Assembly: GCA_938045545.1 (NCBI GenBank)
Contig: CALIBN010000010.1
Location: 46,240-110,239, forward strand
DNA length: 64,000 bases
DNA from: an uncultured archaeon
GTDB lineage: Archaea > Thermoproteota > EX4484-205 > JAAOZP01
Direction of reading: 5' to 3'
Of this stretch, positions 6,443 to 57,657 are shown piece after piece. A program made the position numbers and the translations under genes. Within the stretch, counting starts at the first letter, position 1. Every line of letters starts with the position of its first letter. The notes below the pieces were generated by a model that did not search any database, had not been told where the DNA came from, and saw only the letters and a program-made list of their open reading frames with translations.

Positions 6443-7199
6443 AAAGGCTTAATGACGCTTACCGGAGCCTGGTTATAAACATTATTTCTGGACAACATAG
6501 AAAAAGGAGGGTTAAACCCGGTAACGAGGGTTTCACTTTAGGGGGTTGGAACCAGTATTCCCTCAGTGATTAGCCGCGTGGAAACTGGTTGCTGAACAGC
6601 TTTACATACTTTATCCTTTAAAGGAGTGGCCTCCTATTCCTTCTCACCTTTACAAACTCTTTGCAGAATCTTTGTTTCTCTTTAGAGTCAAATCACACAT
6701 TAAGTGCGCAGCGTGAACCACGTCAGCCCTCCTCACTATCTCGTTGAAGACTTGCTCTTCAGACATATCCTTAGGGTTAAAGACTAAGGTGAAAAACGTG
6801 CTACGCCTGGATTCAGCTCAAACTCGACATCTACCCAGTATTTTTTCCTTTATTCTTCTGGCCACTTCTTTTCCCCAGTACAATGGTAGGATGAAGCCAC
6901 CATAGGGTCTTCCAAATACTTCTCCCACTTCCCGTTAACTAGGTCATTAAGTATTTCATCCCTTTCTTTATGCACCTTCTTCTAAATCCTATTCCTTTCC
7001 TCCTCGCTCTTCGCCTTCTTCAGCTTGGAGCAATATACACCCAGATCTAAAACTGTCTCCACGATATAGCGCGTGCCAGCAGTTCGTATATATCTGGGCC
7101 AAAAGGTCCTATTTCTGGAAATAGAACCTTTTTACAAGAATAAAAAAGGTTTATTACTCGGCTTTTCTTTTTCGGTAAAAGGAGAAGAGAAGAGAGAAA

Positions 7200-7774
7200 A
7201 TGGGCATAAAACTTGATAAAAAAATAATTATTATTGTGTTTAGGCTGCTGGTCTCTAGTTCAGTAATATCCTTCGTAATTACGAGTGTTTTGTGTTACTC
7301 GCTCTGGGGTTACTACTGGAGTAAACCTCCATATCATAACCTTGAATATGGAAATGTTTCATCTTCAAGTTATTGGGCAGTGGAAGACGCTATCTCCGAC
7401 TGGAATAATATACCGATAACGAACCATCCTTCCTTTTATCCTGTAATCTCTGGGCCCCCTCAACACGTTGAAATCCATGACACTTATAACTCCACTGCCT
7501 TATGGGATGGAAAATGTTGGCTATCTCAAACTTCGGAAATATAATTGAGCATGCAATAATCTACCTTAACACCTATTATGTCGATAGTTACTCTTACAAT
7601 AAAAAGAAGTCTTTAGCCTGTCACGAGCTTGGCCATGTTCTTGGATTATACGACGTGGGGCCCTATAATCCAGTAATAATGAATGGATATACTTATTACA
7701 GATACGATGTTTACGGAATTTCCACTCCACAACAAGACGACATAAATGGAGTAGCAGCAATCTATGGGGGATGA
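7200..7774 (+). pseudogene. secreted matrixin-like (metzincin) zinc metalloprotease, split by a frameshift near 7520-7540
   Basis: N-terminal hydrophobic signal in 7200..7544; HELGHVLGL zinc motif, downstream IM Met-turn and DDINGVAAIYG in 7502..7774; the two ORFs overlap. Confidence 0.75.
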
Positions 7775-7780
7775 AGGGGG

Positions 7781-8422
7781 ATGAAGAGGAATAGCTTGAT
7801 AAAATTAAAGTCCGCATCTATTTTGATAGGAATTATCGTCGGATTGCTCAGCAGCCTGGTCACAATCAACCATATCCTAAATCCACAGCATATGATGAAT
7901 AATGCTGAAAACGATGAAACTGAAGATGCGGTTGAGGTAAGTTGGGTAATATATTTCAGCAACTTAAGAGAGCTTGTAACAAACTCCGATGTAATAATTC
8001 TAGGAAAAGTCATCGATGCTAGAACGATTATTAGGACTATTTATGAACCATGGGGTACAAAGGATATAGGGACTGCATATAAATTTGAAGTCGAGCAAGT
8101 GATAAAAGGTGATCTTAGAGTCGGCGAGGTCATAGGATTCGCTCTGAGTGGAGGCATAATTAATGGGAAGCCGAGAATGGTCATAAGAGAGGATCCTTTG
8201 GCGAACGTTGGTGAACGGCTTATACTATTTCTAAAACGCACCGAAGGAGGCTTTGCGATTCAGGGTCCATGGGGAAGATTTATCGTAATTTCAAATAAAG
8301 TGTATTCGTTGGGCGCCATTTATCTGGCTTCGAAAAACTATTCATTGGACGTCAATGGAACCAACCTAGAAGAATTCATAAAAGAAATACAGGTTATCAT
8401 GACAACATTTTACATAGGCTAG
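7781..8422 (+). CDS. membrane-anchored hypothetical protein, partner of the metalloprotease
   Basis: 213 aa ORF, N-terminal TM segment, directly downstream and co-oriented. Confidence 0.7.
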   Translation: MKRNSLIKLKSASILIGIIVGLLSSLVTINHILNPQHMMNNAENDETEDAVEVSWVIYFSNLRELVTNSDVIILGKVIDARTIIRTIYEPWGTKDIGTAYKFEVEQVIKGDLRVGEVIGFALSGGIINGKPRMVIREDPLANVGERLILFLKRTEGGFAIQGPWGRFIVISNKVYSLGAIYLASKNYSLDVNGTNLEEFIKEIQVIMTTFYIG

Positions 8423-8738
8423 TAGCGCGCTAGCAGACTGAGCTCGTAAAAGGCTTCTATAATAGTTTTTCTTCTTCCATGCTTGCCCCTTGGCCAGATT
8501 CGGGCTTTTTGAGCCGCCAAGCGGGTATTCTACCAATGAACTACAGACCCTAGCGTTAACCTTTTTCCTAATGATATTTAAGCTTTCCCTATAATCTTAA
8601 TAGATCTGAATACGAAATATGGTCTAATATCCAAGTTACCCATCATTATATTACTAACTCTATTACAAATAGGGCTAGTTAAAAACCCAGCTGTTCCTGT
8701 TACATCTTGGAAAAATAGTCTTCCGAAGAATATCTGGG

Positions 8739-8963
8739 CTAGCGTACACTATAATATAAAATATAAAATGAGAATTTGAGTGCGATATAAAATGAGAATT
8801 TGAGTGCGCGCTCCCACCAATACTTGTACTCCATCCACCCTCGGAGTATTCTATCCAGTATCTCCTCTGAGGAGAGACGGGAATATTTTTGGAAGGAATC
8901 CATCTTCCTGAAGTATTCTATGGAATCTACGAATCGCTTCTTAAGCTCTGGGTTTATCATCAC
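8739..8963 (-). pseudogene. truncated copy 1 of the repeated KRFVDSIxYxRKMDFF (immunity-like) family
   Basis: N-terminus INPELKKRFVDSIEYFRKMDSF..SSEEILDRI matches 53830..54510; homology stops at GAGTGCGCGCTC (8802-8813). Confidence 0.85.
8761..8808. repeat. 24-bp perfect tandem duplication
   Basis: ATATAAAATGAGAATTTGAGTGCG twice (8761-8784, 8785-8808). Confidence 0.95.
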
Positions 8964-9872
8964 CGTTACTAATCATGAATTCAACTTTTAAGCATAACTT
9001 TTTTAATTTCATGTAAAAGCTTGGTTCCCCCCAATATGTTGTGCAGAAAAGATTGTGTGAAGCTGAGGTTTGGAATACGTGAGATTCAATATCCTCCTTT
9101 ATCTGGTGCACGGGGATTAAACAAACAATGAAACTATGAAGAATGAAGATTAGAGGTGATTGGGAAGAAAAGACAGATAAAAGCAGAAAAGGGTCAGAAG
9201 AAATAAGGTCGTGCTATTCTCCAAGGTGAAGAGTCCGGAAATGGTATCGTGAAATCGGTTGATCTCTTCTTCCGTTGATGGTATTTTTCTTCTAAGCATT
9301 TCCCCGATCTCGGCTAAGGAATAAATTTATTTGGTTCCATTTTCTCAAGAATGTTATGTTATAGATTTATACCACGAAAGAGAACGTTTTTGAAACAAAG
9401 CTTATGATGCTTAAAGAAACAAACAACTCCTAATCTTTAAAAGATTTCAGTAAAATTATAGATTGCCAGATGAACCGCTTAAACTATGGTGAAAACTCTC
9501 CCAAGGATGGATTCATACAAAAGGAATCGTGTAAAAAATTATTGAACATATCAAGGGAAAAATCGGATTTACCTTCATAAGCATTCTATAAGTGACCCAT
9601 AAAAGCCCAATCTGGTCACCGATGTCTCCGAAAGTCATTGAATTAAAAGCTGGGAGACTTAAAGGGGAGCCCTAACCCCAGGGCCTTAGTCGAGAAATGC
9701 CTAGCCTTATGAGACTCTATGGCCTACGAGGATGGACATCGCAATAGACTATGGTGGAAGATCGAGAAGGATAAGGATTTAAGATGGTGTTGACAGAATA
9801 ATGAAAATGTTGCCTACTGAGTGTCACCTCATGATCCCGAGATCCTTCATAACCTTAAGTTAGTTAAAGCAT

Positions 9873-9973
9873 CGCTGGGGACGGGATTCGAACCCGCACG
9901 GCCCAGAAGGGCCACAAGCTTGCTTGAAGAGCTTTTCTCCAGGCTTGCGCCTTGCCAGTTCGGCCACCCCAGC
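9873..9973 (-). tRNA. tRNA-Ser(GGA) with 16-nt intron at 37/38 (9921-9936)
   Basis: Acceptor GCTGGGG/CCCCAGC, anticodon stem CAAGC/GCTTG with loop CT-GGA-G, long variable arm, GGTTCGAATCC. Confidence 0.92.
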
Positions 9974-10088
9974 GCGATATATTGAGGCACGCCCATCTTA
10001 AAAGTTTTTACAACATGCTTACAAAAGGCGTTTTTAAGTTTTAGGAGCGAGTTACGCTTAAATGCAACTTCATGAACATTAGTGATGG

Positions 10089-10350
10089 ATGGTGAACCTG
10101 GAGCTCAGGAAGCGCTTCGTCGATTCGATAGAGCACATTAGGAAGATGGATTTCTTCAAGGACCACTCTAACTTGTCCTCCGTGAAGATCCTCGAAAAGA
10201 TATTCGGGGGGAAATAGACTACGAGTATTGGTGGAAGGAAAAGAGTCCGCGTAAACGAAGGGAGCCAGATTTCTACAAATCCCTACGAGAAAATGATCTG
10301 TATGGACTCATCTTGAGAAAAAGAGTGTATATTCCGAAAGGGGTCTTTGC
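10089..10350 (+). pseudogene. truncated, frameshifted copy 2 of the repeated immunity-like family
   Basis: MVNLELRKRFVDSIEHIRKMDFFKDHSNLSS..., frameshift in G6 tract 10206-10211, continues EIDYEYWW...; ends at GCACGCGCGC. Confidence 0.85.
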
Positions 10351-11710
10351 ACGCGCGCTCCCCCCTCTTCGGGCCTGTAGAGAGACCTGTGGCAGTGCCC
10401 TATTACGCGGATCTCGCTCAGGTCCTTATTCTCTAAAAGTTTCTTCATCATCTCCTTGGGATTCGCATCCATAGGAAGGCCGAGCTCATGGCCGTGGCTA
10501 AACCTTACTACCTTCCAATTCGCTAACTTGACCTTTATCCTTTTCTTCGAGAACCTCCGGAGCATCGTCAGAATCCTTATGGCTTCCACCAATATCGGAT
10601 GCGGGCTATACAGTTGAGGTTCCCACGGTCCCCTCGCAAACGTAAACCTTCTCAGGGTCTTTAAAAACTCGGGAGCGTTTGAATCCGAGCATCCAGACAC
10701 GTACCTCATGCGGGCGCCGAGGTCCTTCAGAAAGTCGAGGAAACTAATGATGTGCGATGCCTTTGGCTTCCCCTCCACGAAGTCGAATACGTCGCCCAAG
10801 AGGACCAGGTGGGTCGGGTGGATCTCCATGAGCCTCCTCAAGCACGGCAGCCAGAGTGATTGGGGGACACCTATGTGTAAATCCCCTACGACCGCTAAGC
10901 AATCATCCTTCTCCAATATCATGTCGTAAACAGGTATCTCATCCAGCTTTCCCTTCTCCGCATACTCTTTGAGCATGACCCAATCGTGCCACGCTATGTC
11001 ATCCGGGTTTTCAGCGATCTGGTTTGGGAACTTAGCTGAGCATGCCTTACAGTTACACTCAATGAGGTCTCTTTCCAGGTCTATGATGCCCACGCCGGAT
11101 GACGTGCCCGCATAAGCATGCCAATTCTTGGCCTCTATTAGCCAAGACATGCCCGCCAGGGAGATTTCAGGGTCTGATTTGTAGAGATCATGCAGGCCTT
11201 TGAGGCCTAAGGCCCCTATCATCAGGGGCTTCGCCCCGATTTCGTATATCTTCACCAGCCCCAGCGAGTAGAGGTCGTCGGCGATTTTAGCCATATCCTC
11301 ATGGACCTCGGCGCCGCGGCTTCTAGCCAGAACGTACTCGGTGGCGTGAAGCCCAACCCTCCTGAAGCCCATTTTCTCCAGCCACTCCGCGTGGAGCGCC
11401 ATCTCTGAAGGGTCTACTCCCTTCAGCAGCGTATCGTTGGTATCCCCTCCTCAACATACTTCATCGTTAGGAGCGTGGCCTCGATCAGATTGGATAAATT
11501 CAAAGCCTTGGAGTACTCGGCGTAAACGGGCATATCCCACCCAATCACCCCATTGAAGTCTCCTTTCTTTGTAAAAGCCCACGGTGAAGTTGAACGTCTC
11601 TTCGGTTAGGAGCCTATCCGGCATTATTGTTGAGAGCAGGATTTGACCATCGAATTCTAGGAAGTTGTGCACTCCTTCCTCTTTAACCCTTTTTATGTTC
11701 TCGCCGTCGC
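10350..11710 (-). pseudogene. TGT/DUF4417-like domain fused to a calcineurin-like metallophosphoesterase (copy A, frameshifted and truncated)
   Basis: CNCKAC...WHD zinc-like motif; MPP motifs GDLHIG, LLGDVFD, SGCSD, SHGH, GHCH; 5' part closely similar to 42250-42590. Confidence 0.7.
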
Positions 11711-12563
11711 CATACTCCAAACGAATATACCGAAATACCAAAACAACATTTTGAAAAACCCTTTTTATACGCATATATTTTTTACTAATGGCCTCATATC
11801 ACTACCCTCTACGATCTAATATTGGAATTGGATTTCTCGGTCTTTATAGAATGCATGCTCAAATCGTTAAAAAAAATAATAATCTTCAAAAAGCATTAAA
11901 ATGTTATCGTTCGCGTTTCTCGGCCCTCCAGTATAGGTATGGAATCCCCTTCTCATAGCAGGGCCAATTCTCGTGCCTCAATTCATAACCCAAACTCACT
12001 ACATCCTTAAGACCCAACTTCCTTCTCAGTAACCTTTTCAATAACCTTCTTGAAAATGAGGATCACAAGGCTCTATTCAAGCGGAGGCGAGCCTTAGATA
12101 AATCATGTACGACTCTAGCATCATGTTCGCCACCAGTTCAACAGCCCTCATGGGGCTCGGAATACCTGCGGAGCTTCTCGGAGCTGTTTTAGCGTGCACG
12201 CTATAAAGCCGTTAGACTTAAAAACTTCGGGTTCAGAATAAAAAAAGAGAAGAGTTGGATAAATGTCCCGTTTGCCATGAGAAGGTAGGAGGTTAGGAAC
12301 AGAAGCTCGAGGATCTCTCCATAATGCTCATCGGCCGTAGTCTGCTAGAGCCATGCATTAATGTCTTACTCTCCTCTCCGGTTTTCTCCTCAGCAATATG
12401 TAGATGGTGTCAAGTATTGCTGGGGATATTAGCCTCTCAACGAGTGTTAGAGGCTTCTCGTCCTAGTATAGCTGGAAGAAGGTATAATGGTCTTTGATAA
12501 AAAAAGGTCGAGAAAACCATGAAACGATGGCCAAATGAAAACTCGCGTAGCAACTAAAGGGAT

Positions 12564-13566
12564 TTAGTGGCTCTTCCACATTTTAGGATATAAGTCTCTG
12601 CTTATCACGACCCTCTCCACGGACACGACTATACCACTTTTAGCCTGCAGAACTTCGTCGGAACTCATCATAAGGGTGCCAAAGCCGACGCACTCACCCT
12701 TCAAAGTTTTTATGCACACAACATCCCCCTTGGAAAGAGGGTGATCTATCTTTGAAACTCCTTTGGAGGCGAGGGGAGCGCCGTGTGCAACAGCCGCCAC
12801 CGCGCTGTCTTTAATATACACTGAGGGAAAGCCTTTGAAAGCGTCTTCAACAGGTTTAACGAGTCTTCTTAGAAGAGTCTCATCACCCTTCTTAGAGTAG
12901 AGCTGCCAGCCAGCGTAGAGCTCTAAAAGAGTTGCCGAAGAATCCTCGTCTAGAAAACCGTCCCTAACCCTTCTGAGTTCAACCATGTGTGCACCCGTGC
13001 CCAGCAGCAGGCCAAGATCATGCAGAAGCTTCCTGATGTACGTGCCCGGCTCGGTGACAACCCTGAAGACGAACCTCCTGTCTGAAACATCCTCCACCGT
13101 AAACCTTACAATAATTCTCCGCCTCAGCGACCTTTTAACGGATGATTTAACCGGTGGACGTTGGTATATTGGGCCAGTCATCTTCTCAACCCATTTCCTT
13201 AAAGCCTTCTCCTCGAATTCCCCGTGTATCTCGCAGACCCCGACATACTCTTTACTCATCATATGCAAGTACTCTATGGTTTTAGTAGCGTCGTTAAGAC
13301 AAACCGGCAGGACACCGGATACGCCGGGATCTCCCCATTGCTTCAAGGGTCCCGGCGTGCCCAGCCTTCTCGGCGTTGAGGATCCTCTTAACGGTTGAAG
13401 ACACGTCGTGGCTCGAGGGCCCCGGAGGCTTATCAAGGTTCACAACCCCCAGCTGCAGAAGCCTGGAGATGCTTCTTTTATCGGGGTGCTCACCGTACTT
13501 CTCGTCGGTTTCACACTCCTCCTTGACAAGCGTCCGGAACCTTACGAAGTCAACAAGCGTCCTCAA
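12564..13566 (-). CDS. cbf5: H/ACA pseudouridine synthase Cbf5, two exons (13566-13344 and 13330-12564)
   Basis: [11 protein letters not shown]...GHAGTL in exon 1; [19 protein letters not shown] domain and YPKMWK in exon 2; removing the intron restores GTLDPGVSG. Confidence 0.95.
13331..13343 (-). other. 13-nt BHB-type mRNA intron in cbf5
   Basis: GGGA-CCCT-TG^A-AGCAAT-GGGG-AG^A-TCCC: outer helix GGGA/TCCC, 4-bp helix CCCT/GGGG, two 3-nt bulges. Confidence 0.9.
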
Positions 13567-13843
13567 ACCTCACGATCTCCCTCATGAATTCTTTCAAGCC
13601 GCTTTTCTCTATGGCCGTCATAACAGTCTCATCCTTAGAGTTCACCCTTATTCTGACGGTTTCAGCAAGGGGCATGAGGTGGAGGATGTTCTTCCTACCC
13701 CTCTTAACACCGTTCAACTCCTTTGGACCAGTTACGATAACACTCGTATCGTCAACGCTGCCTACTATAACGCATTTCTTACCCCTGTCCCTTCCACGGG
13801 TTATCACGCATATTCTTCCTGGCCGCAACACTTCCCTAGGCAT
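13550..13843 (-). CDS. rpl14e: 50S ribosomal protein L14e
   Basis: [36 protein letters not shown]. Confidence 0.95.
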
Positions 13844-13850
13844 CTTCCCA

Positions 13851-14414
13851 TCACCATTTCTCCTCCAAATAGGCTGAGACGGCTAACTTAAGTATTCTAC
13901 CGACTGACTCCTGGGAAAGGCTTCCAGTGTCGATAATGATGTCGTAGATGCTTAAATCATCGATGTTAAACCCATAGTACTCGACGAACCTTTTCCTCTC
14001 CGAGTCCTCTCTAGTAAGTGTTTCAGAAACTACTTCTTCAAAGGGTTTTTTCTCTCTGGCAGCAATCCTTCTGCACCTTTCTTCGAAGGGCGCCTTCAAA
14101 TATATTTTGAAGGATTCGACGCCCCTGGCGAACCATCCTGCGAGAAGACTGTCTAGAACGACCCCTCCGGAGTCGAGCAGTGATAAAGTAACGTTGTCTA
14201 TCTCCCTGTCGAAATCAGGGGATTTCTTGCAGAGCTCTGAGAGCTGGGCAAGAGTCAACCCCTTATTCTCAGCTATCGAACGGAAAACCGAGCCCGTTGA
14301 AACATATCTGAGGTTGAACTGCCTCGCAAGCGGAGCTGCGAAAGTCGATTTCCCAACTCCGTGTAGACCCGTTATTATTATTATCGGGTTTCTCGGCCGC
14401 TTCAACCCCGCCAT
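13851..14414 (-). CDS. cmk: cytidylate kinase
   Basis: GLHGVGKST P-loop, FDREID, RFVEYYG..IDDLSIYD; conserved position. Confidence 0.92.
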   Translation of the reverse strand: MAGLKRPRNPIIIITGLHGVGKSTFAAPLARQFNLRYVSTGSVFRSIAENKGLTLAQLSELCKKSPDFDREIDNVTLSLLDSGGVVLDSLLAGWFARGVESFKIYLKAPFEERCRRIAAREKKPFEEVVSETLTREDSERKRFVEYYGFNIDDLSIYDIIIDTGSLSQESVGRILKLAVSAYLEEKW

Positions 14415-14415
14415 C

Positions 14416-14874
14416 TCAGCCACCCACCCCAAATGCTTTCCTGAAGACCTGCAGGAAGAAGGAGAGGGATATGAAGTACCAGAGGCCGTAGTTCAACTGT
14501 ACCTGCTCGTTTCCACCGTATAGCGATGCTGAGAAGCGTCCGGCTACATCCCCCATGGGTAGTGTGAACCATAGAAGGTAGAATGCTGAAAGCATGATGC
14601 CCATGTTCACGAGCATTGTTTTAAGCTGGAATGAGGAGACCTCCTGCTCAACCTGGGACATGTAGACCTTCTGCTTGTCGAGCTTTTTAAGAAGCTTCTG
14701 ATCCTTAAGCCTGGCTGCGGCGGCACGCTCCAACCTGTATGCTTTCAACTCCTCAGTCTTCAACCTCATCCTTTCAGGGTGTAGGATGAATTTCAAAACC
14801 AAGTGGCCTAGGAGCGAGGCGGTTGCTGAGACAAGCGTCACCGTGACAATTCCACTAACAGGCAATCGCATCAT
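14416..14874 (-). CDS. EMC3/TMCO1 (DUF106, Oxa1 superfamily) membrane protein
   Basis: TM, coiled coil, TM layout with WYFISL; downstream of secY. Confidence 0.8.
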   Translation of the reverse strand: MMRLPVSGIVTVTLVSATASLLGHLVLKFILHPERMRLKTEELKAYRLERAAAARLKDQKLLKKLDKQKVYMSQVEQEVSSFQLKTMLVNMGIMLSAFYLLWFTLPMGDVAGRFSASLYGGNEQVQLNYGLWYFISLSFFLQVFRKAFGVGG

Positions 14875-14974
14875 CCTCCGTGGTAAACGAGTTTAAACCA
14901 TTCTTAGCGGGGTGCTCAACACTACGCGTCATGCTAACTCGTCGGAAAACCGGATGTTAAATAAATGTTTCTGG

Positions 14975-16381
14975 CTACTTGCCAAGCACCTTAAGCAGGC
15001 CGGGATGGGTTTCAATAGTCTCCTCCATTATTAACTGGTAGTACTGCTGAATAATGTCCACCGCCAGCAGGACGCCCATGCCCCCGCCTATGACGGCGAG
15101 CACGTCCCCCACGCCGGCGATAAGCCCGATCGTTAAGCCGCCTAGGAGCGCAACCGTGTTTATGTAGGGAGCTATTTTACTCTCGATTACTCCAGGAGTA
15201 GACCTGAATCCTCTTAGGAAAACGTCTGAGTCAACCAGCTGAGATGAAACCGACTTAGCGTCCATGCCTGAAACCGAAAGCCAAACCATCGACAGGCCTA
15301 GGCTTAGAAGGGCGAGCAGAAGCACGTAGCCTACTGCGCGGAGGGGCTCCGCAGCAACATGCGTGATGCCTCTCGGAGGGTTCACCAGCCAGGCTAAGCC
15401 TGAAACAGGAACATACGTGTTGTTAACAACTTCAACCCTGCCTATGAAGTCAGCCACCGGGGTGTTAGCCAGCCAGGTTCCACTCGCAACATTAGCCATC
15501 AGCTGTATGTTTGAGAAGATTGCCGCCGCGAGAATGACTGGAATGTTTGAAACGTAGAGCAGCCTGATGGGGAAGCCTCTGGAGAAGCCTCTGAAACGGC
15601 CGTGGGAAATCGGAACGTTAATCCTAACGTTTTCAAGGTAGACGAGTAGGAGTATGAACATTACGGTTATGATCAGCTGGAAAAGCGTGGGAACCGCGGG
15701 AGCACCCCTGTAGAAAAAGTCGGCGAGAGGGCTTTGAAGAGAGAAAGCCTTTTGAAAGAAGAAGAGCAGGACTCCCCACATGTAGCCGTCGGGCGCTGGA
15801 AGAGGGTTTAAGCAGCCCAGCCATATTTCCTTAGCGACGCCGGCGAGGATGAACAGGCTTATTCCGCTGCCTAGGCCCCAGCCCTTTTGAAGAGTCTCAT
15901 CCAGAAAGAGGAGGAGAATCGAGGCTATTGAAAGCTGCATTACAGCTATGATTTCAGCCTTCAGGCTCAATTTCCCTAGGGACCCGCTGAAAACAGTTGA
16001 GCCCGCTGAGAAAAGGATGATCAACAAGGTAGCCAGCTTCGTCGCTACCTGCAGCATCCTCCTGTCATACTCGGAGCCGGGGTCGAACCTGATCAAGCCG
16101 GAGCCGGCTAAAAGCTGAACTACGAGGCTGCCTGTTACGAGGGGCCCGATGCCAAGGTGGAGGAGCGAGCCCTGCTGCCCTCCTATTATGATCCTGTATG
16201 ATGCCCATGGGTCAGCCCCTTGGGAGACAATCCCGTAGAGAGGAATATAGCCCATAACCAGGTAGAACGCTAGGATAAGCCCTGTCCACATAAGCCGGGT
16301 GGTGAAGCCAACCTTTCTAGTAGGCGCCTCTATCTGGGGGACGTATGGCTCAATACTCTCCATGGCTTCCAGGAAACCCAT
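14975..16381 (-). CDS. secY: protein translocase SecY
   Basis: LGIGPLVTGSLVVQLL, KGWGLGSGISLFILAGV, PIRLLYVSNIPVIL. Confidence 0.97.
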   Translation of the reverse strand: MGFLEAMESIEPYVPQIEAPTRKVGFTTRLMWTGLILAFYLVMGYIPLYGIVSQGADPWASYRIIIGGQQGSLLHLGIGPLVTGSLVVQLLAGSGLIRFDPGSEYDRRMLQVATKLATLLIILFSAGSTVFSGSLGKLSLKAEIIAVMQLSIASILLLFLDETLQKGWGLGSGISLFILAGVAKEIWLGCLNPLPAPDGYMWGVLLFFFQKAFSLQSPLADFFYRGAPAVPTLFQLIITVMFILLLVYLENVRINVPISHGRFRGFSRGFPIRLLYVSNIPVILAAAIFSNIQLMANVASGTWLANTPVADFIGRVEVVNNTYVPVSGLAWLVNPPRGITHVAAEPLRAVGYVLLLALLSLGLSMVWLSVSGMDAKSVSSQLVDSDVFLRGFRSTPGVIESKIAPYINTVALLGGLTIGLIAGVGDVLAVIGGGMGVLLAVDIIQQYYQLIMEETIETHPGLLKVLGK

Positions 16382-46130: not shown

Positions 46131-46221
46131 TACATCTAAGATAAGCCCAGAGAATTAAAAAAACTTGCGGAAAAACAGTGTCGAAAATCCTTATATCCTC
46201 AAGCTAAAAGAACAACATTAG

Positions 46222-47805: not shown

Positions 47806-49470
47806 TTGGAAGGAGCTTTTAAACAGAAAATTGCTTACTTCTCAATGGAGATTGCATTGTCTAACGATATTCACACTTACAGCGGAGGCCTAGGGGTTCT
47901 CGCGGGCGATGTAGTAAGGTCAAGCGCAGATCTTAACCTTCCCCTGTTAGCGGTCACGCTCGTAAGCAAAAAAGGATACTTTAGGCAAGAACTAACCCGT
48001 GAAGGAAGACAAATAGAGCATACTGATTCTTGGGACCCTTCACAGTTCATGCAACAATTACCTGAAGAAGTTACGGTTAAAATCCAAGGCAGAGATATTT
48101 ACATAAAAGCTTGGCGGTACACGATAAAAAGTGTGTCAGGCTGGGAGGTTCCAGTATATTTTCTGGATACTGATATTGAGGGGAATCTTCCTGAGGATAG
48201 GGAAATAACTTCACTTTTATATGGTGGTGATGAAAGATATCGTATAAAGCAAGAGATTGTTCTAGGAATAGGAGGCGTCAGAATGTTAGAAAAGCTTAAC
48301 GTGCTCGTCCATAAATATCATATGAATGAGGGTCATTCCAGCTTCCTAGCTCTTGAATTGCTGCGTAAATTTGAGATGGATATAAATAAAGTTAGAAACT
48401 TATGCGTGTTCACTACGCACACGCCGGTTGAAGCTGGGCACGATAAATTCTCATACGAGCTTGTTCAAGAAACTTTAGGAGAATTCATTCCGCTAAATAT
48501 CTTAAAAAGCTTAGGTGGACAGGATAGATTGAACATGACGCTTCTTGCACTGAATCTGAGCAACTATGTTAACGGCGTAGCGAAAATGCATGGAATTATT
48601 TCTAGAGAAATGTTCCCAAGCCATAAGATTCACGCGATAACAAATGGTGTCCACTCTTACACTTGGACGTGTGAAAGTTTTAGACGACTATACGATAAGT
48701 ATCTTCCGGGATGGGCGCATGAGCCTGAACTACTTATAAGAATAGATATAGTCCCGAACGATGAAATCTGGCAGGCTCATATGGCAGTGAAGAAAATCCT
48801 AATCGACTATGTCAATACGACGACAAATATTGGCATGGACTATGAAGCTTTAACAATAGGGTTTGCTCGAAGAGCCACAGAATATAAAAGGCATATGCTT
48901 ATATTTTCAGATCCTGAGAGGCTGCGTAGAGTAAACAGCAGAGGAAGAATTCAACTCATCTTTGCTGGAAAAGCCCATCCGAAAGACTATCGGGGGAAGA
49001 TGCAAATCGAAGAACTGTTTAGGTATAAAGAAATGTTTAAGGATGAGATAAAAATAGCCTACTTAGAAAACTATGATATAAACGTTGCGGCCAAACTTGT
49101 TTCAGGGGTTGACGTTTGGCTGAACACGCCTCTCCCTCCGATGGAAGCTTCGGGCACAAGCGGGATGAAGGCCGCTCACAATGGTGTGATAAATTTCAGC
49201 GTCTTAGATGGCTGGTGGGTTGAAGGCTGGATAGAAGGCATTACAGGATGGGCAATAGGTCCCTCTCCAGAAGAAAAAGCATCAATAGAAGAGCGAAAAG
49301 CTAGAGAGCTCAATGATCTCTATGGAAAATTAGAGTATGTAATAATTCCGTCGTATTACAAGCGAAGAGATGAGTGGATACCAATGATGAAAAATTCGAT
49401 AGGAAAAATAGCATCTTATTTCAACAGTCATAGAATGATGCATAGATATGTAACTGAAGCGTATTTATAG
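47806..49470 (+). CDS. glgP: alpha-glucan phosphorylase
   Basis: YFSME, YSGGLGVLAGD, HMNEGH, FARRATEYKR, EASGTSGMKA. Confidence 0.95.
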   Translation: MEGAFKQKIAYFSMEIALSNDIHTYSGGLGVLAGDVVRSSADLNLPLLAVTLVSKKGYFRQELTREGRQIEHTDSWDPSQFMQQLPEEVTVKIQGRDIYIKAWRYTIKSVSGWEVPVYFLDTDIEGNLPEDREITSLLYGGDERYRIKQEIVLGIGGVRMLEKLNVLVHKYHMNEGHSSFLALELLRKFEMDINKVRNLCVFTTHTPVEAGHDKFSYELVQETLGEFIPLNILKSLGGQDRLNMTLLALNLSNYVNGVAKMHGIISREMFPSHKIHAITNGVHSYTWTCESFRRLYDKYLPGWAHEPELLIRIDIVPNDEIWQAHMAVKKILIDYVNTTTNIGMDYEALTIGFARRATEYKRHMLIFSDPERLRRVNSRGRIQLIFAGKAHPKDYRGKMQIEELFRYKEMFKDEIKIAYLENYDINVAAKLVSGVDVWLNTPLPPMEASGTSGMKAAHNGVINFSVLDGWWVEGWIEGITGWAIGPSPEEKASIEERKARELNDLYGKLEYVIIPSYYKRRDEWIPMMKNSIGKIASYFNSHRMMHRYVTEAYL

Positions 49471-49671
49471 AGATTCACATTAGATCATTATTCTCTAAGC
49501 TTAAATATTGCGGGAGGGCCTCAACACGTTGTGTTGTTAATTTTGAAAGTAATCTGATTTATAGTCAAAGCATGGGAATACCAGAATTGCGACCTCTTTG
49601 CACCTTTAATTGGGCAGTGGGTGTAACGCTTTAATAGAAGTGACATATGTGCGTACTTCGTTGAGCCTCAG

Positions 49672-50793
49672 CTAAGGTTGTATCAGGCTTTTAAGAATAT
49701 AATAGTATGCCGGCTTAGGATTATAGGACTCGTCGAAGATCAGGGCTGAACCGTATCCGTTGAAAAACTCTGGAATCCAAGAATAGCGATCTGTGAAACC
49801 CCACATTACGAATGCGGTGCATTTTTCTGAAGAAAGACAAACCATAAGCATGTCACGGTATATTTCTGCTTGTCTGATTAAGTCTACAGATTTAGCGGGC
49901 AGCTTTAACCGAACATCCATTTCTGTAATATGAATCTCTAGGCCCAGATCACTGAGTCGTTTAATGTTGGCTGAAACTTCTTGCGGTGTTGGATAATACT
50001 CTGTGCTAACGTGCATCTGCAGGCCGACTCCGTGTATCGGCACACCTTTTTCCAAGAGACTTTTAACTAAGTTGTAAACAGCATCCGACTTCACGCCCAA
50101 GCCTTCGGCACCATAATCATTGTAAAAGAGAAGCGCCTGAGGATCCGCTTCATGCGCCCACCGGAATACCATCTCAATGTACTCTGGTCCTATGTTTCTC
50201 AGCCAAATAGTTTTCCTCAAAGATCCGTCGTCGTCAACTGCCTCGTTAACCACGTCCCACGCATAAAACCTTCCCTTATAATGGCCAACCACCATGTTAA
50301 TATGATCGTGGAGAATGCTCATCCATTCCTCGCGGCTATAGTTTCCATGCGTAATCCATTCAGGCAGCTGATAATGCCAGACAAGTGTGTGTCCGCGCAC
50401 CTTCATCCCGTTGGCCTCTGCAAAACTGACGATCGCATCAGCCTCGGCGAAGGAATAGACGTAGCGCTCAGGGTGGACTCTTTCAAATTTTAAGGCGTTT
50501 TCAGTTGTCAAAATGTTGAATTCCCTGCTAAGCGTCTCCGTGTATTCCTTTATTCTAAGCTGGTCAGCGCCCACTGCAGCACCAATATAGATACCTCGTT
50601 TCTCAGTTAGCACTTTCAAAGGCGGAACCGCCTGCCGCAACTGCTCTATTTGAGCACTAAGCCTTGAAACCCGCTGCCGCAACTCCTCTACTTCTCTTTG
50701 CTTCATTACGATTCCCAACGCATATCCAACTATGATTCCAGCCAGTAAACCGGCTATTAGGCATTCTTTCGAAAAAGCCAGGCCGCTTCTCAT
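49672..50793 (-). CDS. membrane-anchored GH10 endo-1,4-beta-xylanase
   Basis: N-terminal TM and coiled coil; ENALK, RGHTLVWH, WDVVNE, GLQMH, ITEMD, WGFTDRYSW. Confidence 0.92.
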   Translation of the reverse strand: MRSGLAFSKECLIAGLLAGIIVGYALGIVMKQREVEELRQRVSRLSAQIEQLRQAVPPLKVLTEKRGIYIGAAVGADQLRIKEYTETLSREFNILTTENALKFERVHPERYVYSFAEADAIVSFAEANGMKVRGHTLVWHYQLPEWITHGNYSREEWMSILHDHINMVVGHYKGRFYAWDVVNEAVDDDGSLRKTIWLRNIGPEYIEMVFRWAHEADPQALLFYNDYGAEGLGVKSDAVYNLVKSLLEKGVPIHGVGLQMHVSTEYYPTPQEVSANIKRLSDLGLEIHITEMDVRLKLPAKSVDLIRQAEIYRDMLMVCLSSEKCTAFVMWGFTDRYSWIPEFFNGYGSALIFDESYNPKPAYYYILKSLIQP

Positions 50794-50882
50794 GTTTAAA
50801 CAAATTTATCCAAGGTTAATAAAAATTCTTGTAAGCCATTTTTCGTATTAAGCTTATTAACCGTTGAACCGCTTAATAACCG

Positions 50883-51377
50883 GTGAACAAGATGGTTTTG
50901 AAAGAAGGCGATAGTGCTCCGGATTTCACTCTTCAATCTGACGAAGGTAAAAAGATATCTCTAAAGGATTACAGGGGGAGAAAAGTGGCGCTATATTTTT
51001 ATCCGAGGGACGGTACTCCAGGATGCACTCAGGAAGCGAGGAGATTCAGGGATTTGGCTGAAGAGTTCAGCAGGGAGAACGTTGCAATCATCGGAGTTAG
51101 CATGGATAGTGTCGAATCACATAAGAGGTTTAAAAAGGATAATGATTTGCCTTTCACACTCTTAAGCGATCCGGAAGCCAATGTCATTAAGAAATATGGG
51201 GCATGGGGGAAGAAGAATCTTTACGGCAGGCTTGTTACGGGTGTAGAGAGAACAACGTTCCTTATCGACGAAGAAGGGAAAATAAGGAGGATCTATAGGA
51301 ACATTAAGCCTGAGGAGCATGCTGAAAAATGCCTGCTGGATTTAAAAAGCCTGGGTTCAAACAGGCAGGCATTGTGA
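50883..51377 (+). CDS. bcp: peroxiredoxin Bcp
   Basis: YFYPRDGTPGCTQEA, LLSD, RTTFLID. Confidence 0.93.
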   Translation: MNKMVLKEGDSAPDFTLQSDEGKKISLKDYRGRKVALYFYPRDGTPGCTQEARRFRDLAEEFSRENVAIIGVSMDSVESHKRFKKDNDLPFTLLSDPEANVIKKYGAWGKKNLYGRLVTGVERTTFLIDEEGKIRRIYRNIKPEEHAEKCLLDLKSLGSNRQAL

Positions 51378-51433
51378 AAACAGCCTACGGTGGTTAGACA
51401 GAGTAAGCTCAACAGTCCTCCTACAGAGGGGGA

Positions 51434-52567
51434 ATGGGTTTAATGAAGCCAGTGTCCGAAAAACAGGTGTCTTCGCGGAGGGTCATTCTGCTAGTCGACC
51501 TAGACTATTTCTTCGCGCAGTGCGAGGAAACAAGGAACCCGTCTTTAAGAAACAAGCCTCTGGTTGTATGCGTCTACTCCGGGCGGAGCGGGGAAAGCGG
51601 TGTTGTAAGCACTGCAAACTATGAGGCGAGGAAGCACGGGGTTAAATCAGGCATCCCCATCTCGCTTGCTAAAAAGAGGCTGATGAACGTTGACGCAGTA
51701 TTCCTCCCGGTCGACCACGAGTATTATAACAGGGTTTCAGACAAAGTGATGAGCATCCTTAAGAAGCATGCGGACTTCTTCGAGCAGGCTGGGGTGGACG
51801 AGGCCTATCTTGATGTGAGCGAGAGGGTTGAGGGTGATTTCGACAGGGCTGTAGAGTTGGCCAGGAGGATGAAGGAGGAGGTTAAGAGGAGCATGGGGTT
51901 AACCTGCTCCATTGGCATCGGTCCGAATAAGCTTGTCGCCAAGATTGCCGCTGACTTTCAAAAGCCGGACGGCTTAACAGCTGTTAAACCAGAGGAGGTT
52001 CAAGATTTCCTTTCACCGTTACCGGTCAACCGGCTGATCGGAGTCGGAGTTAAGACTCAGAGCCTGATGGAAAGCCTTGGCATTAAAACAATAGGCGACC
52101 TGGCGAGCTACGATGTTAGGAAGCTAATTGTGCTTTTCGGAGAGAAGCTGGGTGTTTACTTCCATAATGCTTCCCGGGGAATAGACAACCAGCCTGTTAA
52201 GGAGAGGGGTGAGGCTTCATCCATAAGTAGAATAACAACGTTGAAGGAGGATACGCGGAACCTTGAGGCTGTTCTTAAGAAGACGAGTGGGCTTTGCGAC
52301 GAGATTCATGCTGAGCTCTCCCGGCGGAGGCTGAGGGCTAAACAAGTTGGAATAATAGTGATTACGAAAGATATGGCTGTTCATAGTAGGTCGAAAACCT
52401 TGGAACAGCCTACAAGCGACCTGGAAGCTATTAAAAAGAATGTTAGGGATTTGTTTGAAAAGTTTCTGAGGGAGTCGGGGCTTGAAGCCAGAAGAGTAGG
52501 CGTTAGGGTCTCAGGTTTCGTTAAAGAAGAAAGGCAGAAACAGTTAAGGGCCTTCATACCAAGCTGA
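51434..52567 (+). CDS. dinB: Y-family DNA polymerase IV (Dpo4/DinB)
   Basis: VDLDYFFAQCE, TANYEARK.GV, DEAYLD, KPDG. Confidence 0.95.
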   Translation: MGLMKPVSEKQVSSRRVILLVDLDYFFAQCEETRNPSLRNKPLVVCVYSGRSGESGVVSTANYEARKHGVKSGIPISLAKKRLMNVDAVFLPVDHEYYNRVSDKVMSILKKHADFFEQAGVDEAYLDVSERVEGDFDRAVELARRMKEEVKRSMGLTCSIGIGPNKLVAKIAADFQKPDGLTAVKPEEVQDFLSPLPVNRLIGVGVKTQSLMESLGIKTIGDLASYDVRKLIVLFGEKLGVYFHNASRGIDNQPVKERGEASSISRITTLKEDTRNLEAVLKKTSGLCDEIHAELSRRRLRAKQVGIIVITKDMAVHSRSKTLEQPTSDLEAIKKNVRDLFEKFLRESGLEARRVGVRVSGFVKEERQKQLRAFIPS

Positions 52568-52859
52568 GCCTTGTTCATATAACTTGGTTAAATGGCTTGT
52601 CGCGTGCTATCCTATTTTTCTCTCAAACGAGTCTTCGAAGAGGATTCTTCGACCTCGAATAACTATTTGAAACAAGCCGTAAACCAGCATTGGGTTTGCC
52701 ACAGCCCTCTATAGGACCCTTATAAATAACTCCTCTTTCAAAACCTTTTTAACCAATACTCCAATACTTATTGAAGCGCACGCTTAGTTTATTCCTTCCC
52801 CACGCTGGAAACTTGGCCTTAAACGCTTAAATCTCTCATAACTGCTTTAAACAAACGGG

Positions 52860-53213: not shown

Positions 53214-53499
53214 TCTTTGCAGACTGATCATGTGCATGCGCACCACAACCTGATATCTGGGAAAAGGTGCAGGACGATAGAAGAAAAATCAAAAATTGTT
53301 GAATTTGAAAAGGGCTTCTAAATTTAAATCCACCCCGTCTTTTTTCTGGATTTGAGAAAAATGCTGGTCGCCCGTTAGGCATCCAAGTTTAAGTTTTTGC
53401 GCCGCCGCTATAATGCTGTCGGCCATCGGTATTCTATACTTAGCGCGCGTCACTATATATTATTTTATTAGTAAAGCCTTAAATCCTTAAGAAGATTTG

Positions 53500-53605
53500 T
53501 GGGCCCGGAGGGATTTGAACCCCCAACCTACGGGTTATGAGCCCGCCGCTCTAACCTGGCTGCTCCGAGACATGTTTAAATTTTTCTCGTTTAAGCTACG
53601 GGCCC
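53500..53605 (-). tRNA. tRNA with CAT anticodon, likely Ile2, with 31-nt D-loop intron (53560-53590)
   Basis: Acceptor GGGCCCG/CGGGCCC typical of archaeal tRNA-Ile, arm GCGGG-CTCATAA-CCCGT; intron with GCTT/GAGC helix, two 3-nt bulges and CGAGA/TCTCG stem. Confidence 0.88.
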
Positions 53606-53829
53606 TCAAGTTTATTTGACACACTAGGGTAAATAAAAACTTTTCCCTCGTTGTATTTAAGTGCTGAATAACGTGTTTTCCAGTTGCCTCGTCTATTTCA
53701 ACCGATACGCTTTAGGATTCGCAGGCGATGGCCTAAGCGTGCACCGAATTATGAAAAGGGAATCGATTCTTTAAGGTATTAAAGGAGCTACACTTAAAAG
53801 CCTGACTATATAATTATTATCTCAACGGA

Positions 53830-54510
53830 ATGGTTGACTCCAAGCTCAGGAAGCGATTCGTGGATTCCATAGATTACCTCCGCAAGATGGATTTCTTCAA
53901 AGACTATTCTGATTTGTCTTCAGAAGAGATCTTAGAAAGGATCTTCAGTGGAGAAATTAATTATCCGCATAGTTGGTGGTACGAAGAGCCTAGAGTCTTT
54001 TCCGAAAAGCCAGAACCCATACTGCACGGGCCCTCTCTGCTGATAAGCATAAAAGATCATCAGAAATACTGGATGAAGGCAAGCGATTTTGAAATAGATC
54101 GTTTATTGATTCCTTTCGATACTAAAAGGGTTATGAAGGAAAATGCCGAGACTAGCATTGATGATAACATTGGCACGGCCCTCCTTAAGAGGCTCGCAAG
54201 GATATCGAGGGGCGTTTTTCAGCCAACTAATATAAGCTCGATGTGGCTAACGCCCAAAAGATCTAAGTGGCTAGTACAAGAGGTCAGCTTCGATTTTAAG
54301 GGCAAGAGGCATAGCATCGAGATCGTCCTTCAATACGATTACATCGAGGACATGGGCCTCAGGGAGTTGAACGAGCTCATAGAAAAAACTGGATATAAGT
54401 ACTATCAGGTAGAGCAAGACTATATAATCGTGGTCGTGCTGACGAAGGAGGCTGAGAAGTTGGAGAAGGAGAGGGGCTGGAAGTTCGAGTATATTTTCTT
54501 AACCCTCTGA
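53830..54510 (+). CDS. copy 4 (intact) of the repeated immunity-like family
   Basis: 226 aa open ORF homologous to the copies at 8963, 10089 and 39925. Confidence 0.85.
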   Translation: MVDSKLRKRFVDSIDYLRKMDFFKDYSDLSSEEILERIFSGEINYPHSWWYEEPRVFSEKPEPILHGPSLLISIKDHQKYWMKASDFEIDRLLIPFDTKRVMKENAETSIDDNIGTALLKRLARISRGVFQPTNISSMWLTPKRSKWLVQEVSFDFKGKRHSIEIVLQYDYIEDMGLRELNELIEKTGYKYYQVEQDYIIVVVLTKEAEKLEKERGWKFEYIFLTL

Positions 54511-56226: not shown

Positions 56227-56310
56227 CTAAAGTTACACATACCAACCATCTCCATGGGAGCGGGGGGTGAGCCTAGAGAGACAATCTGGATGATGTAGGT
56301 TGCGCGCGCA

Positions 56311-56601
56311 TTTTACAAGTGGTTCTCCAAATACGGGAAGAGCGTATGGAGGCCGTTGGCGTGGTCGATGGCAACGATATTCGTAATGTTCATCCTCTTC
56401 GCCTTATCCGGCGGTCAACCGATTGGAGAATACTTCAATAGCCTGAAGCACAGCTTCTCCCTGTTCTTCCAGCTGACCCCAGTGGACTACAGATGGCCGA
56501 TGGGCATCCTTCTCCTAAGCATCCTGGAGAGGATCCTTGGGCTTCTGTTCCCAGCCCTGAAAGTCCTAGCCTTGAGGAGAATGCTCGAGAGAGTTCCGTA
56601 G
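56311..56601 (+). pseudogene. C-terminal fragment of a membrane protein
   Basis: YKWFSKYGKSVWRPLAW...TM...ERILG..LALRRMLER with no start; begins at the TGCGCGCGCA palindrome. Confidence 0.5.
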
Positions 56602-56751
56602 CAAAATGCCATACTCAAACTATTGATTCATAAGTAGACATTTCTTTTCTTGAGCTTTCTTTTCGCTCCAAATTTAGTGCAAATTTTTAAATCGTGGAGG
56701 ACTGATAGATGCATGAAGATCCAAAACTCTTAAGAATAATGAAATCATAGG

Positions 56752-57407
56752 ACGCGTGCGCGCAGAATTGTCGCAGAGGAAAGAATTAATCTTGCCTTAT
56801 CTGATACAAGTTGTCTTAGCATTTTAATGAAATATATGAAATATCTTAATGTTCCGGCCACAATGCTACGATATGCATGGATCTCGTCAAAAACAAAATA
56901 CTCTATACTTGCGATAGATAACCGTTTTTCCAATGTCTTGTATTTATTAGTCGATATTGATATGCCCAAATATTAGTTATGAGTATTGTAGGTGGCTCTT
57001 CTTCAAAACCTTCTCGCGTAAGACGAATAAAATCAAGAGATTCATTACATTTTCCACAGAATACCTTCCTATTTTTTATAATTAGCGACTCTTTGGCATG
57101 GACCGGACATTTTATCCCCCTATATTTATCAAAATCTTTCAAATCCTTACGAAACGTTACATCACCATCGTCAATACCAATAGAAATTTGCAAATTACAC
57201 TCTTTGTTCATATGATAAATTAGTTTAATGAGCCTCCCCATTTGATCTGAACCTAAAGGTTTTCTAGGATAGAAAATTACAGCCACGGTATCATTCCGTC
57301 TTTCCAGCTTTGCTTTTATAGCTGCAATCAAAATTGGTATAATAAAAACGAAGGTTTTTCCAAAGGCGGTAGGAGCGGAAATTATAGCATCTTTCCCATT
57401 AAGTAAA
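56752..57407 (-). pseudogene. internal fragment of a DEAD/DEAH-box (SF2) helicase
   Basis: APTAFGKT, FYPRKPL..DQ, PTILITN, VFDEIHAY, SSAT; frameshifted and cut at both ends. Confidence 0.85.
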
Positions 57408-57657
57408 AGTTTTGGTCATGGCGGTGTCGGTATGACCAAAACTACTTCTACTTCCATCGGTGTGGTCTTATCTACATCGACTTTCAGTTTTCGAGTGTTC
57501 GGTAGGACGATGTACTTGGTTTTCTGGTTCGTAATCGAAGATAAATTTGGTACCTGTTGGCGTTGACTATCCTGCCTCGGTGGAGATGACGACGTTCTTA
57601 CTGACTAGCGCGCACGTTATCACGTTTAACGATAAAATTAAATCAATTGAATGTTTA

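Follow-up and report, generated by a model that had tools for sequence, protein, structure and literature searches.

In a 64,000-nt stretch of the genome of an uncultured archaeon (the window; assembly GCA_938045545.1, contig CALIBN010000010.1, positions 46,240 to 110,239), a short GC-rich run of alternating purines and pyrimidines recurs in the spacers of the accessory DNA and stands at several places where a gene is cut short, which raises the question of what this motif is and whether it preceded the cut or came with the join. A first-pass annotation, made from the letters alone, had proposed that the motif marks cassette ends and gene-truncation points and that a cut-and-join system acts on it; all 21 of the strings that it quoted, and both breakpoints that it described as free of the motif, were found at their positions. 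The window (C10:46240-110239) belongs to a 2.03-Mb metagenome-assembled genome (MAG; 2,027,007 nt in 51 contigs, 92% complete), which is labelled G000 here, with relatives labelled G001-G025, contigs from other sources labelled X1, X2 and X7, and fetched loci given L-numbers. The genus set comprises 17 genomes, and nine more come from three other families of the order. Completeness of the MAGs is 57-94% over the order and 70-94% inside the genus, and therefore an enzyme family that was not found is not to be equated with one that is absent. The window contains six tRNA genes and a ribosomal-protein/SecY block, an Rfam scan of it returned tRNAs only, and the closest public SecY sequences (76-99% identity) come from MAGs labelled Candidatus Brockarchaeota, Thermoproteota or Nitrososphaerota. 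In comparison with five same-genus genomes, the conserved blocks of the window are 1-6961, 12562-25366, 28390-38495, 43471-52601 and 57618 onward, while 6961-12562, parts of 25.8-28.4 kb, 38.5-43.5 kb and 52.6-57.6 kb are islands that vary between genomes.

Sequence and distribution of the motif

The motif is non-random. The window contains 21 copies of AGCGYGC where 9.4 are expected (0 of 100 shuffles reached 21) and 7 copies of TAGCGYGC where 2.1 are expected (2 of 100 shuffles reached 7). Genome-wide, the open reading frames (ORFs) of at least 100 aa were masked (1726 ORFs, 83% of the bases), and in the non-ORF DNA of G000 the most over-represented hexamer under a maximal-order Markov model was GCGCGC (306 copies vs 203 expected), followed by GTGCGC/GCGCAC and then by GCGTGC/GCACGC. 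The proposed enrichment over a Markov background was borne out, being strong and specific outside ORFs. GCGCGC is 7.1 times denser outside than inside ORFs (154 vs 107 copies) and the alternating CGCGCG 5.35 times, while the other 12, non-alternating, G3C3 hexamers have outside-to-inside ratios of 0.70-1.44 and show no such bias. These figures could in principle be a compositional artefact, in which a CpG-poor codon usage depletes genes of GC runs and the spacers just look enriched, and GCGCGC does stand about 3-fold under its base-composition expectation inside ORFs. This explanation is hardly credible, since GCGCGC is over-represented against the spacers' own Markov background, the other CpG-containing G3C3 hexamers are unbiased, a reversed-pattern control gave 0-3 copies per genome, and sister genomes of similar composition have 1-3 copies of the motif.

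The purine-pyrimidine alternation noted in the first-pass annotation is real, and the unit behind it could be refined to a 12-letter palindrome, TA-GCGCGCGC-TA, i.e. TA(GC)4TA, with the undecayed form TAGCGCGCGCTA. AGC-RYRY-GCT was found 46 times outside and 18 times inside ORFs (12.6-fold denser outside); the ratio is 1.4 for AGC-N4-GCT with any central bases and 0.8-2.2 for other spacings, and TA-(RY)4-TA occurs 33 times outside and 13 times inside. Sites were scored by rewarding GCGCGCGC, with half reward for transitions and an extra reward for TA flanks; at a cut-off of at least 17 (at least 16 in the breakpoint test of the window, below) there are 131 sites outside and 40 inside ORFs genome-wide, about 16 times denser outside. 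No flank conservation beyond TA was seen among 151 sites, and no preferred distance of the motif to gene starts or stops. Among the non-ORF 12-mers of G000 that lie within two mismatches of TAGCGCGCGCTA, one is an exact copy, and of the 13 copies with a single mismatch 12 differ by a transition and 1 by a transversion; changes in core positions are mainly transitions, those in the TA flanks mostly transversions. Because the single-mismatch copies differ mostly by transitions, the purine-pyrimidine look is what transitions leave of (GC)4; the variants may be pure decay or may in part reflect a tolerated degeneracy. Exact copies number 26 in the loci fetched from G008 and 1 in the whole of G000.

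The motif is restricted to one sub-clade of a Brockarchaeota-like genus. Copies of TAGCRYRYGCTA are numerous in 11 genomes (G024 54, G008 45, G002 36, G007 31, G006 25, G009 22, G010 21, G000 15, G012 12, G003 8 and G025 6); the six other genomes of the genus have 1-3, and the nine genomes of the three other families 0-4. The motif-rich genomes are those whose SecY, where found, is at least 81% identical to that of G000. They are mostly 1.8-2.3 Mb in size, compared to 1.2-1.5 Mb for the motif-poor ones, with G012, G025 and G001 as exceptions.

Position of the motif at joints

The motif sits at gene-truncation, deletion and rearrangement joints, and for a number of these the direction of the event can be read from relatives. 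A URO-D-family gene (PF01208, 47 bits) is 370 aa long in G009, and the G007 sequence also continues through the stretch that is deleted in G000, while G000 and G006 keep the C-terminal part only. The joint in G000 is GTGCTAGCGCGCCGT (a 15-nt filler), the joint in G006 is a different GC-rich filler that has GCGCCG in common with it, and in G009 and G007 the motif is present at neither end of the deleted stretch. At the 52601 joint, about 190 nt of a gene kept in G006, G007 and G002 are replaced in G000 by GCGTGCTA, and the independent X7 contig, from another study, has 197 letters where G000 has 30. The family of ORF 10308-11402 is 600-660 aa long elsewhere, and the match of this ORF breaks off at residue 350, the position of the 10348 motif. 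G009 and G008 have an intact copy of a tRNA that in G007 is cut and fused to the tRNA-Pro promoter region via 26 nt containing (GC)4. In G008, 224 nt within a gene (G000 C43:11778-12003) are replaced by exactly GCGCGCGC, in a joint that carries no TA. A second G008 locus (L062) is collinear with C7 of G000 save for three gaps (0.7, 1.8 and 11 kb in G000), and the motif stands at the homology edge in two of the three; in two further G008 genes homology ends at the first base of the motif, and a membrane gene is another case of known direction among the cut genes. In the URO-D, 52601, tRNA and 224-nt cases, bases at the joint are absent from both parental flanks. Since the intact relatives lack the motif at both deletion ends in the cases resolved to the nucleotide, the sequence appears with the join, and we read the motif as laid down at the joint.

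The same picture extends to pieces of DNA that have moved. Motif-flanked segments of 370 bp and 850 bp in G008 are found in G002 at 96% and 93% identity, in other surroundings and with the motif at neither end, and one small ORF is truncated by the joint of these segments in G008. Two blocks that are apart in G000, one on C40 and the other at window position 52890, are connected in G006 by a pristine copy. Where the C40 block ends, a separate copy is present in each of G000, G006 and G009; both its distance from the block and the DNA beyond it differ among the three, and this pattern recurs at the TruB block, at the tRNA-Pro flank and at the end of the GH10 gene.

These arrangements bear on a further explanation, that the motif is the symmetric site of a site-specific recombinase in an integron-like cassette system, in which circles with a single copy would insert at a copy already in the genome, and cassettes would be deleted, inverted and shuffled by recombination from one copy to another. 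In the islands of G008 (POR operon, oxidoreductase, three PIN toxins), nearly all spacers that separate genes or operons have one to four copies, segments are bounded by copies on both sides, and at the same block edges each genome has its own copy with different DNA beyond. We nevertheless consider this explanation improbable, since both cassettes traced to G002 are without the motif at their ends in that genome, the deletion joints bear a motif that the undeleted sequences have at neither end, no empty site with exactly one copy was found, tyrosine integrase matches (10 of 17 genomes) do not track motif counts, and 12 bp is far below the length of known recombinase sites. The same two observations, on undeleted relatives and on traced cassettes, speak against the original suggestion of a pre-existing target that gets cut, whether by a recombinase, by restriction or through Z-DNA.

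The sites were also compared with homology boundaries. At the loci syntenic with the window in six genomes, 30 of 38 sites (score at least 17) are in DNA without an alignment to any of the other five, while unaligned positions make up 18%; a homology boundary is no more than 12 nt away for 7 of these 30 (null 4.2%) and no more than 40 nt away for 14 (null 9.9%). In the G008 set (20 loci, 128 kb, picked around exact matches), none of 82 sites is spanned by any alignment (null 35%), a homology boundary falls inside the motif or at its edge for 12 of 82 (null 1.9%, binomial P ~5e-8), and a boundary lies within 4 nt of the motif for 14 of 82 (null 3.0%). Sites thus occupy lineage-specific DNA and avoid aligned DNA, confirming the concentration in accessory DNA that had been proposed, and no conservation of position was seen in the six-genome loci or in the G008 loci. 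Core intergenic regions lack the motif, and the purine-pyrimidine runs inside conserved coding DNA of the six-genome loci, which align across genomes and have no TA flanks, are chance occurrences. No enrichment at contig ends was found (10 of 131 sites within 500 nt of an end vs 10.0 expected), and the X1 and X2 contigs, examined as contigs and not as raw reads, show no strain-level variation at joints. A hand tally of whether TA always lies on the non-homologous side of the joint (about 5-6 vs 3) was unconvincing.

Overall, these results favor, at a probability of about one half, the reading that TA(GC)4TA is laid down at the joint during illegitimate DNA-end joining and then decays by C/T and G/A transitions. 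The proposed cut-and-join system therefore survives as the best reading in the form of a process that leaves a constant palindromic filler, by a mechanism that we infer rather than demonstrate.

Several observations weigh against this reading. Window breakpoints lie within 20 nt of a site scoring at least 16 in 1 of 19 cases for G006, 0 of 26 for G009, 1 of 25 for G007, 1 of 24 for G002 and 0 of 18 for G008, no more than the 0.7-1.0 given by random non-coding positions (mean 0.66 for G006). Of 10 junctions between G000 and G006 read by eye, 6 have no motif, and the third gap of L062 has none either. The motif marks one class of joints, and most breakpoints lack it. The comparators of the G008 loci were partial (the whole G000 genome and fetched fragments of other relatives), the compared genomes are kin and not independent samples, the direction of events was read from relatives that are 70-98% identical, and the ORF mask is crude, with small genes, RNA genes and pseudogenes left in the non-ORF class. 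A two-step history, in which an element inserted and was later lost along with its flanks, may still lie behind some joints. The TA flanks and the fixed length are explained by no chemistry that has been shown, and no enzyme was found: Ku (PF02735) and RVT_1 each gave matches in 0 of 17 genus genomes, and no PolX palm scored over the cut-off in them. The claim of proximity between motif and breakpoints accordingly stands in part: the motif-side tests in relatives are significant, and the breakpoint-side test of the window with strict sites is not. It should be added that many G000 joints bear partial copies only, under the score threshold. That the motif does not explain every junction had been said from the start, and the two breakpoints without it, at 11709 and 42246, proved to be ends of paralogue homology.

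In the window itself (Table 1), 9 of the 21 listed sites, a count that is biased because the sites were picked by eye, are at most about 12 nt away from a homology end (8802, 10348, 25834, 27230, 39459, 43021, 47706, 52601 and 57606), the site at 46608 is about 26 nt off a boundary, and the other 11 could be tied to none. The filler at 46608 has a truncated gene on one side and a conserved block that resumes at 46645-46661 on the other, and the X7 contig lacks 46343-46660.

Table 1. Motif sites and associated gene fragments in the window, with their relation to homology ends.
Feature	Position	Strand	Remarks
Motif copy TAGCGCGTGCCA, score 18	7067-7078		DNA absent from five relatives; nearest homology end 6961, 105 nt off
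Short form TAGCGCGCTA	8423-8432		Directly 3' of the stop codon of ORF 7781-8422; no relative aligns
Motif copy	8802-8813		Abuts cut end of fragment 8811-8999 of the 226-aa gene family
Truncated copy, multi-copy gene family	10308-11402	-	Weak Metallophos_2 match under cut-off
Motif copy	10348-10360		Truncation point of ORF 10308-11402; homology stops at about nt 10352
14-nt form TAGCGTGCACGCTA	12190-12203		Lineage-specific DNA
C-terminal URO-D-family fragment	25390-25821	-	Full length (370 aa) in G009, longer in G007
Deletion joint, filler GTGCTAGCGCGCCGT	25834-25849		Filler not in undeleted relatives
Partial motif	27230-27244		Indel boundary with G009: alignment segments stop at 27222, resume at 27229
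Partial motif TAGCACGCTTA	39459-39469		Exact stop of homology to G009, G007 and G002 (39458/39459)
GC-rich partial motif	43021-43036		Homology to four paralogous copies ends at 43001-43020
Motif copy TAGCGTACGCTA, score 18	43342-43353		Lineage-specific DNA
Two copies, 46608-46619 and 46641-46648	46608-46648		Within about 85 nt of unalignable filler
CGCGTGCTA	47706-47714		In a replaced tract of about 21 nt common to G006, not in G009 or G007
Filler GCGTGCTA	52602-52609		Deletion of about 190 nt truncating a gene present in G006, G007, G002 and X7
Motif copy	52774-52785		Common to G006, two transitions apart
Motif copy TAGCGCGCGTCA, score 18	53441-53452		47 nt past tRNA-Met
Motif copy TTGCGCGCGCAT, score 17	56300-56311		52.9-57.6 kb island
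GC-rich purine-pyrimidine run of 13 nt	56752-56764		In the 52.9-57.6 kb island
Motif copy	57606-57619		Right edge of the island; homology to G006, G002 and G007 begins at 57617-57625

Among the gene labels that had been given to the neighbourhood of these sites, URO-D-like and PAC2 were confirmed, while the genes called metalloprotease, nuclease and helicase gave no Pfam or NCBIfam match. A family of 226 aa, also without a Pfam or NCBIfam match, has its full gene at 53830-54510 and many copies in relatives too, and its first ~150-190 nt recur as fragments at 8811-8999 (minus strand), 10050-10240, 39885-40047 and 53824-53985. The family of 600-660 aa, with a weak Metallophos_2 match under the cut-off, is represented at 10358-11709 and 42245-42595 of the window, where both copies are truncated, and at C16:33421-34562 of G000; matches to it number up to 7 in G007, while G008, G024 and G010 have none. 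A gene for a Y-family DNA polymerase (IMS, IMS_C and HhH domains) lies at 51434-52567, with its stop codon 34 nt before the 52601 joint. Three tRNA genes (9873-9973, 39700-39790 and 57833-57941) are 91-109 nt long in comparison with a 71-nt model, presumably by introns, and the tRNA-Pro of G000 (57658-57730) is without an insert, where the X7 contig carries 18 extra letters after 57692. Partial tRNA-like duplicates of 46222-46446, 53511-53605 and 57684-57771 are found on C9, C42, C47 and C16; they have the look of attachment sites left behind by elements that integrated beside tRNA-Leu, tRNA-Met and tRNA-Pro. The terminal 128 nt of C10 (63873-64000) recur unchanged at the ends of C11 and C42, as if the assembly graph forked there, at a repeat close to a tRNA-like sequence.

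Candidate enzymes, elements and known systems

The first-pass annotation had recognized no intact responsible enzyme in the window, and across the genus the families searched were either not found or did not follow the motif counts. Neither the DDE_3 (IS630-type) transposase, whose profile matched 5 of 14 known genomes in a control, nor Y1_Tnp (PF01797, RAYT) was found in any of the 17 genus genomes, and DDE_Tnp_1 gave one fragment, in G000. Tyrosine integrase (PF00589) is found in genomes without regard to motif counts (G024, with 54 copies, has no match). TnpB, found in 8 of 17 genomes with 6 matches in G000 and none in G002 or G009, does not track the counts either. The TnpB (Cas12f1-like_TNB) genes of G000 lie on C4 (the whole 3.5-kb contig) and at C24:14855-15851, C24:20447-21443 and C29:46837-47563; they share a conserved 3' end and right-end region, and no Y1 TnpA was found anywhere in the genus. 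The motif as an end of these IS200/IS605 elements was rejected, as the aligned right ends of the TnpB copies lack it. A 364-aa Metallophos-like gene was rejected as the responsible nuclease, as it occurs in motif-poor genomes and is missing from G008, G024 and G010.

An element of which the motif would be what remains was considered as well. In this explanation the motif is the footprint or terminal stub of a TA-targeting cut-and-paste transposon that is missing from the assemblies, with TA as the target duplication, GCGC/GCGC as the element ends, and imprecise excision stripping the flanks. Excision of Tc1/mariner-IS630 elements does leave a short palindromic scar of fixed length, often between two TA and sometimes with loss of flanking DNA; TA-(RY)4-TA is the very class that is enriched here, and the variants of 10, 12 and 14 nt would suit 5, 6 and 7 nt retained per end. 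In addition, L081, a contig of unknown origin from a viral collection, contains an 18-nt inverted repeat whose outer part is (GC)4TA. However, the transposase families named above were not found but for the single fragment, neither intact nor miniature elements were seen (no candidate in G008 either, an assembly of only 20 contigs), TA is not at the readable empty sites, the joint of the 224-nt deletion has no TA, and not one of the 82 G008 sites is a simple insertion in collinear DNA. Matching inner or outer flanks were found in 0 of 565 neighbouring pairs of sites up to 4 kb apart (at least 9 of 12 flank bases shared; 0.28 expected), which leaves no terminal inverted repeat or target-site duplication beyond the motif. 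We therefore regard a transposon footprint as unlikely, and the end of a miniature inverted-repeat element or insertion sequence was rejected on account of the unconserved, unpaired flanks.

As for viral collections in general, a viral source was rejected: two 14-mers match 35 and 14 viral contigs, nearly all at a single site, and these have no blastn match to the archaeal loci. L081 (positions 14040-14168, GC 0.49) has three motif copies in its last 115 nt, two of them as the outer parts of the 18-nt perfect inverted repeat, which encloses a 14-nt loop, and it has no blastn match to the archaeal loci. L122, a viral-collection contig of 2671 nt, has ORFs of 278 and 464 aa with a CRESS-like reading and the same 14-mer near both ends, probably because the ends of a circle overlap there; it has no relation to the archaeal motif. 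The motif-dense island of G008 (L044, G008:C4:196000-208000) carries a 2-oxoacid:ferredoxin oxidoreductase operon 71-72% identical to the copies in G007 and G009, together with an FAD oxidoreductase gene and three PIN-domain toxin genes.

The motif could also be a functional cis-element, such as a binding site of a clade-specific protein, an insulator or a stop signal, that travels with accessory genes, the link to joints being a side effect. Its dyad symmetry, its length of about one helical turn and its extragenic location would fit, as would the TAG that it carries on both strands, which ends an open frame of at least 100 codons at 7 of 131 sites, compared to 0.9% of control TAGs, and its modest clustering (13 gaps of at most 200 nt vs a null mean of 6.9). 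A role of this kind is very unlikely all the same, given that the motif keeps no set distance to starts or stops and no place among relatives, is lacking in core intergenic regions, occurs at intragenic deletion joints, and varies in the pattern of decay and not of a tolerated consensus. Nor does it form strong hairpins: the DNA folds of four copies (-1.2 to -3.8 kcal/mol) were no better than those of shuffles, and an RNA or hairpin function was rejected.

Among known systems, HIP1 had been offered as a loose analogy. Like the motif, HIP1 (GCGATCGC) and other highly iterated cyanobacterial palindromes are described as short, GC-rich, lineage-limited and far above expectation, with function unknown (PMC5861425, PMC4390886). 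The analogy fails on distribution because HIP1 is abundant inside genes, at over one copy per gene, while the motif here is about 16-fold depleted in ORFs, has about 130 copies in 2 Mb, keeps no fixed position among relatives and is found at joints; furthermore, the C5 methyltransferase PF00145, the one methyltransferase family searched, is present in G001 and G004 only, both motif-poor, and in none of the motif-rich genomes. REP/REPIN sequences resemble the motif in being extragenic GC-rich palindromes that are clustered and strain-variable. REPs are 20-40 nt long, with conserved heads, and are accompanied by a Y1 transposase, while the unit here is 12 nt, its flanks are unconserved and Y1_Tnp is lacking. 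Integron attC sites likewise split arrays of accessory genes, toxin-antitoxin genes included, by a repeated palindromic site; they are 57-141 nt long and travel with the cassette, and here both traced cassettes are without the site at their source and the site is found at intragenic deletion joints. In the mosaics made by the Borrelia telomere resolvase, short purine-pyrimidine palindromes stand at fused or exchanged ends in fragment-rich genomes; the motif flanks, in contrast, are not inverted repeats. End-joining fillers and N/P nucleotides come closest in being extra bases at a joint, found in neither parent, together with deletion. Known fillers are variable in sequence or copied from nearby DNA, whereas here one palindrome recurs hundreds of times, and Ku is not found. 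The motif fails a tested defining feature of HIP1, Tc1/mariner, REP, attC and end-joining filler systems alike. A literature search, supplements excluded, found neither the 12-mer nor GCGCGCGC together with archaea and intergenic, and among the matches listed for 'filler DNA' with archaea and deletion, in the parts of them available, none concerned archaeal junctions.

A proposed end joining with a fixed product

In the reading that we prefer, in which the palindrome is laid down as DNA ends are joined, some activity would add a self-complementary (GC)4 piece of constant sequence, frequently along with TA, or would ligate such a piece in. Two ends tailed in this manner would pair via (GC)4 and be sealed to give TA(GC)4TA, while a raw end with a terminal G or C could pair directly and give a joint without TA on that side (as in L058:139 and L063:2431). 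Shifted pairing registers would produce (GC)3 and (GC)5 forms (window 8423 and L062:4277), and joins of multiple fragments would leave the 60-150-nt segments between clustered copies. The events that carry the motif would be deletions within or across genes, joins of blocks that are not neighbours elsewhere, and capture of fragments into accessory islands. Selection would leave scars in dispensable DNA only; the motif would be concentrated in non-coding and accessory DNA because scars survive only where such events are tolerated.

A stronger form of this reading, which we put forward tentatively and hold to be possible but doubtful, is that the sub-clade has a dedicated joining pathway that caps broken or incoming ends with a fixed self-complementary linker, (TA)(GC)4, and then seals them. 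The linker might be made without a conventional template or from a built-in one, and any two ends would become pairable. Thermophilic polymerases have been reported to make palindromic repeats de novo in vitro, which may or may not bear on the motif, and end joining in archaea without Ku is poorly understood. If such a pathway exists, deletions, rearrangements and the stitching of cassettes and fragments into islands would come from one chemistry, and it would be a new route of double-strand-break repair and gene acquisition whose signature is written into the genome.

If the motif is laid down at joints, each copy would be a dated record of one illegitimate joining, the pristine copies recent and the transition-decayed ones old, and the rates of gene loss, rearrangement and fragment capture could be read from the genomes of uncultured archaea. 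A further implication would be a chemistry of end joining or insertion that yields a fixed product, of which we know no example in any organism. For the annotation of these MAGs, the motif is a flag for the ends of pseudogenes and the borders of islands. The way in which motif count tracks genome size suggests a link between this process and the growth of the accessory genome in the sub-clade.

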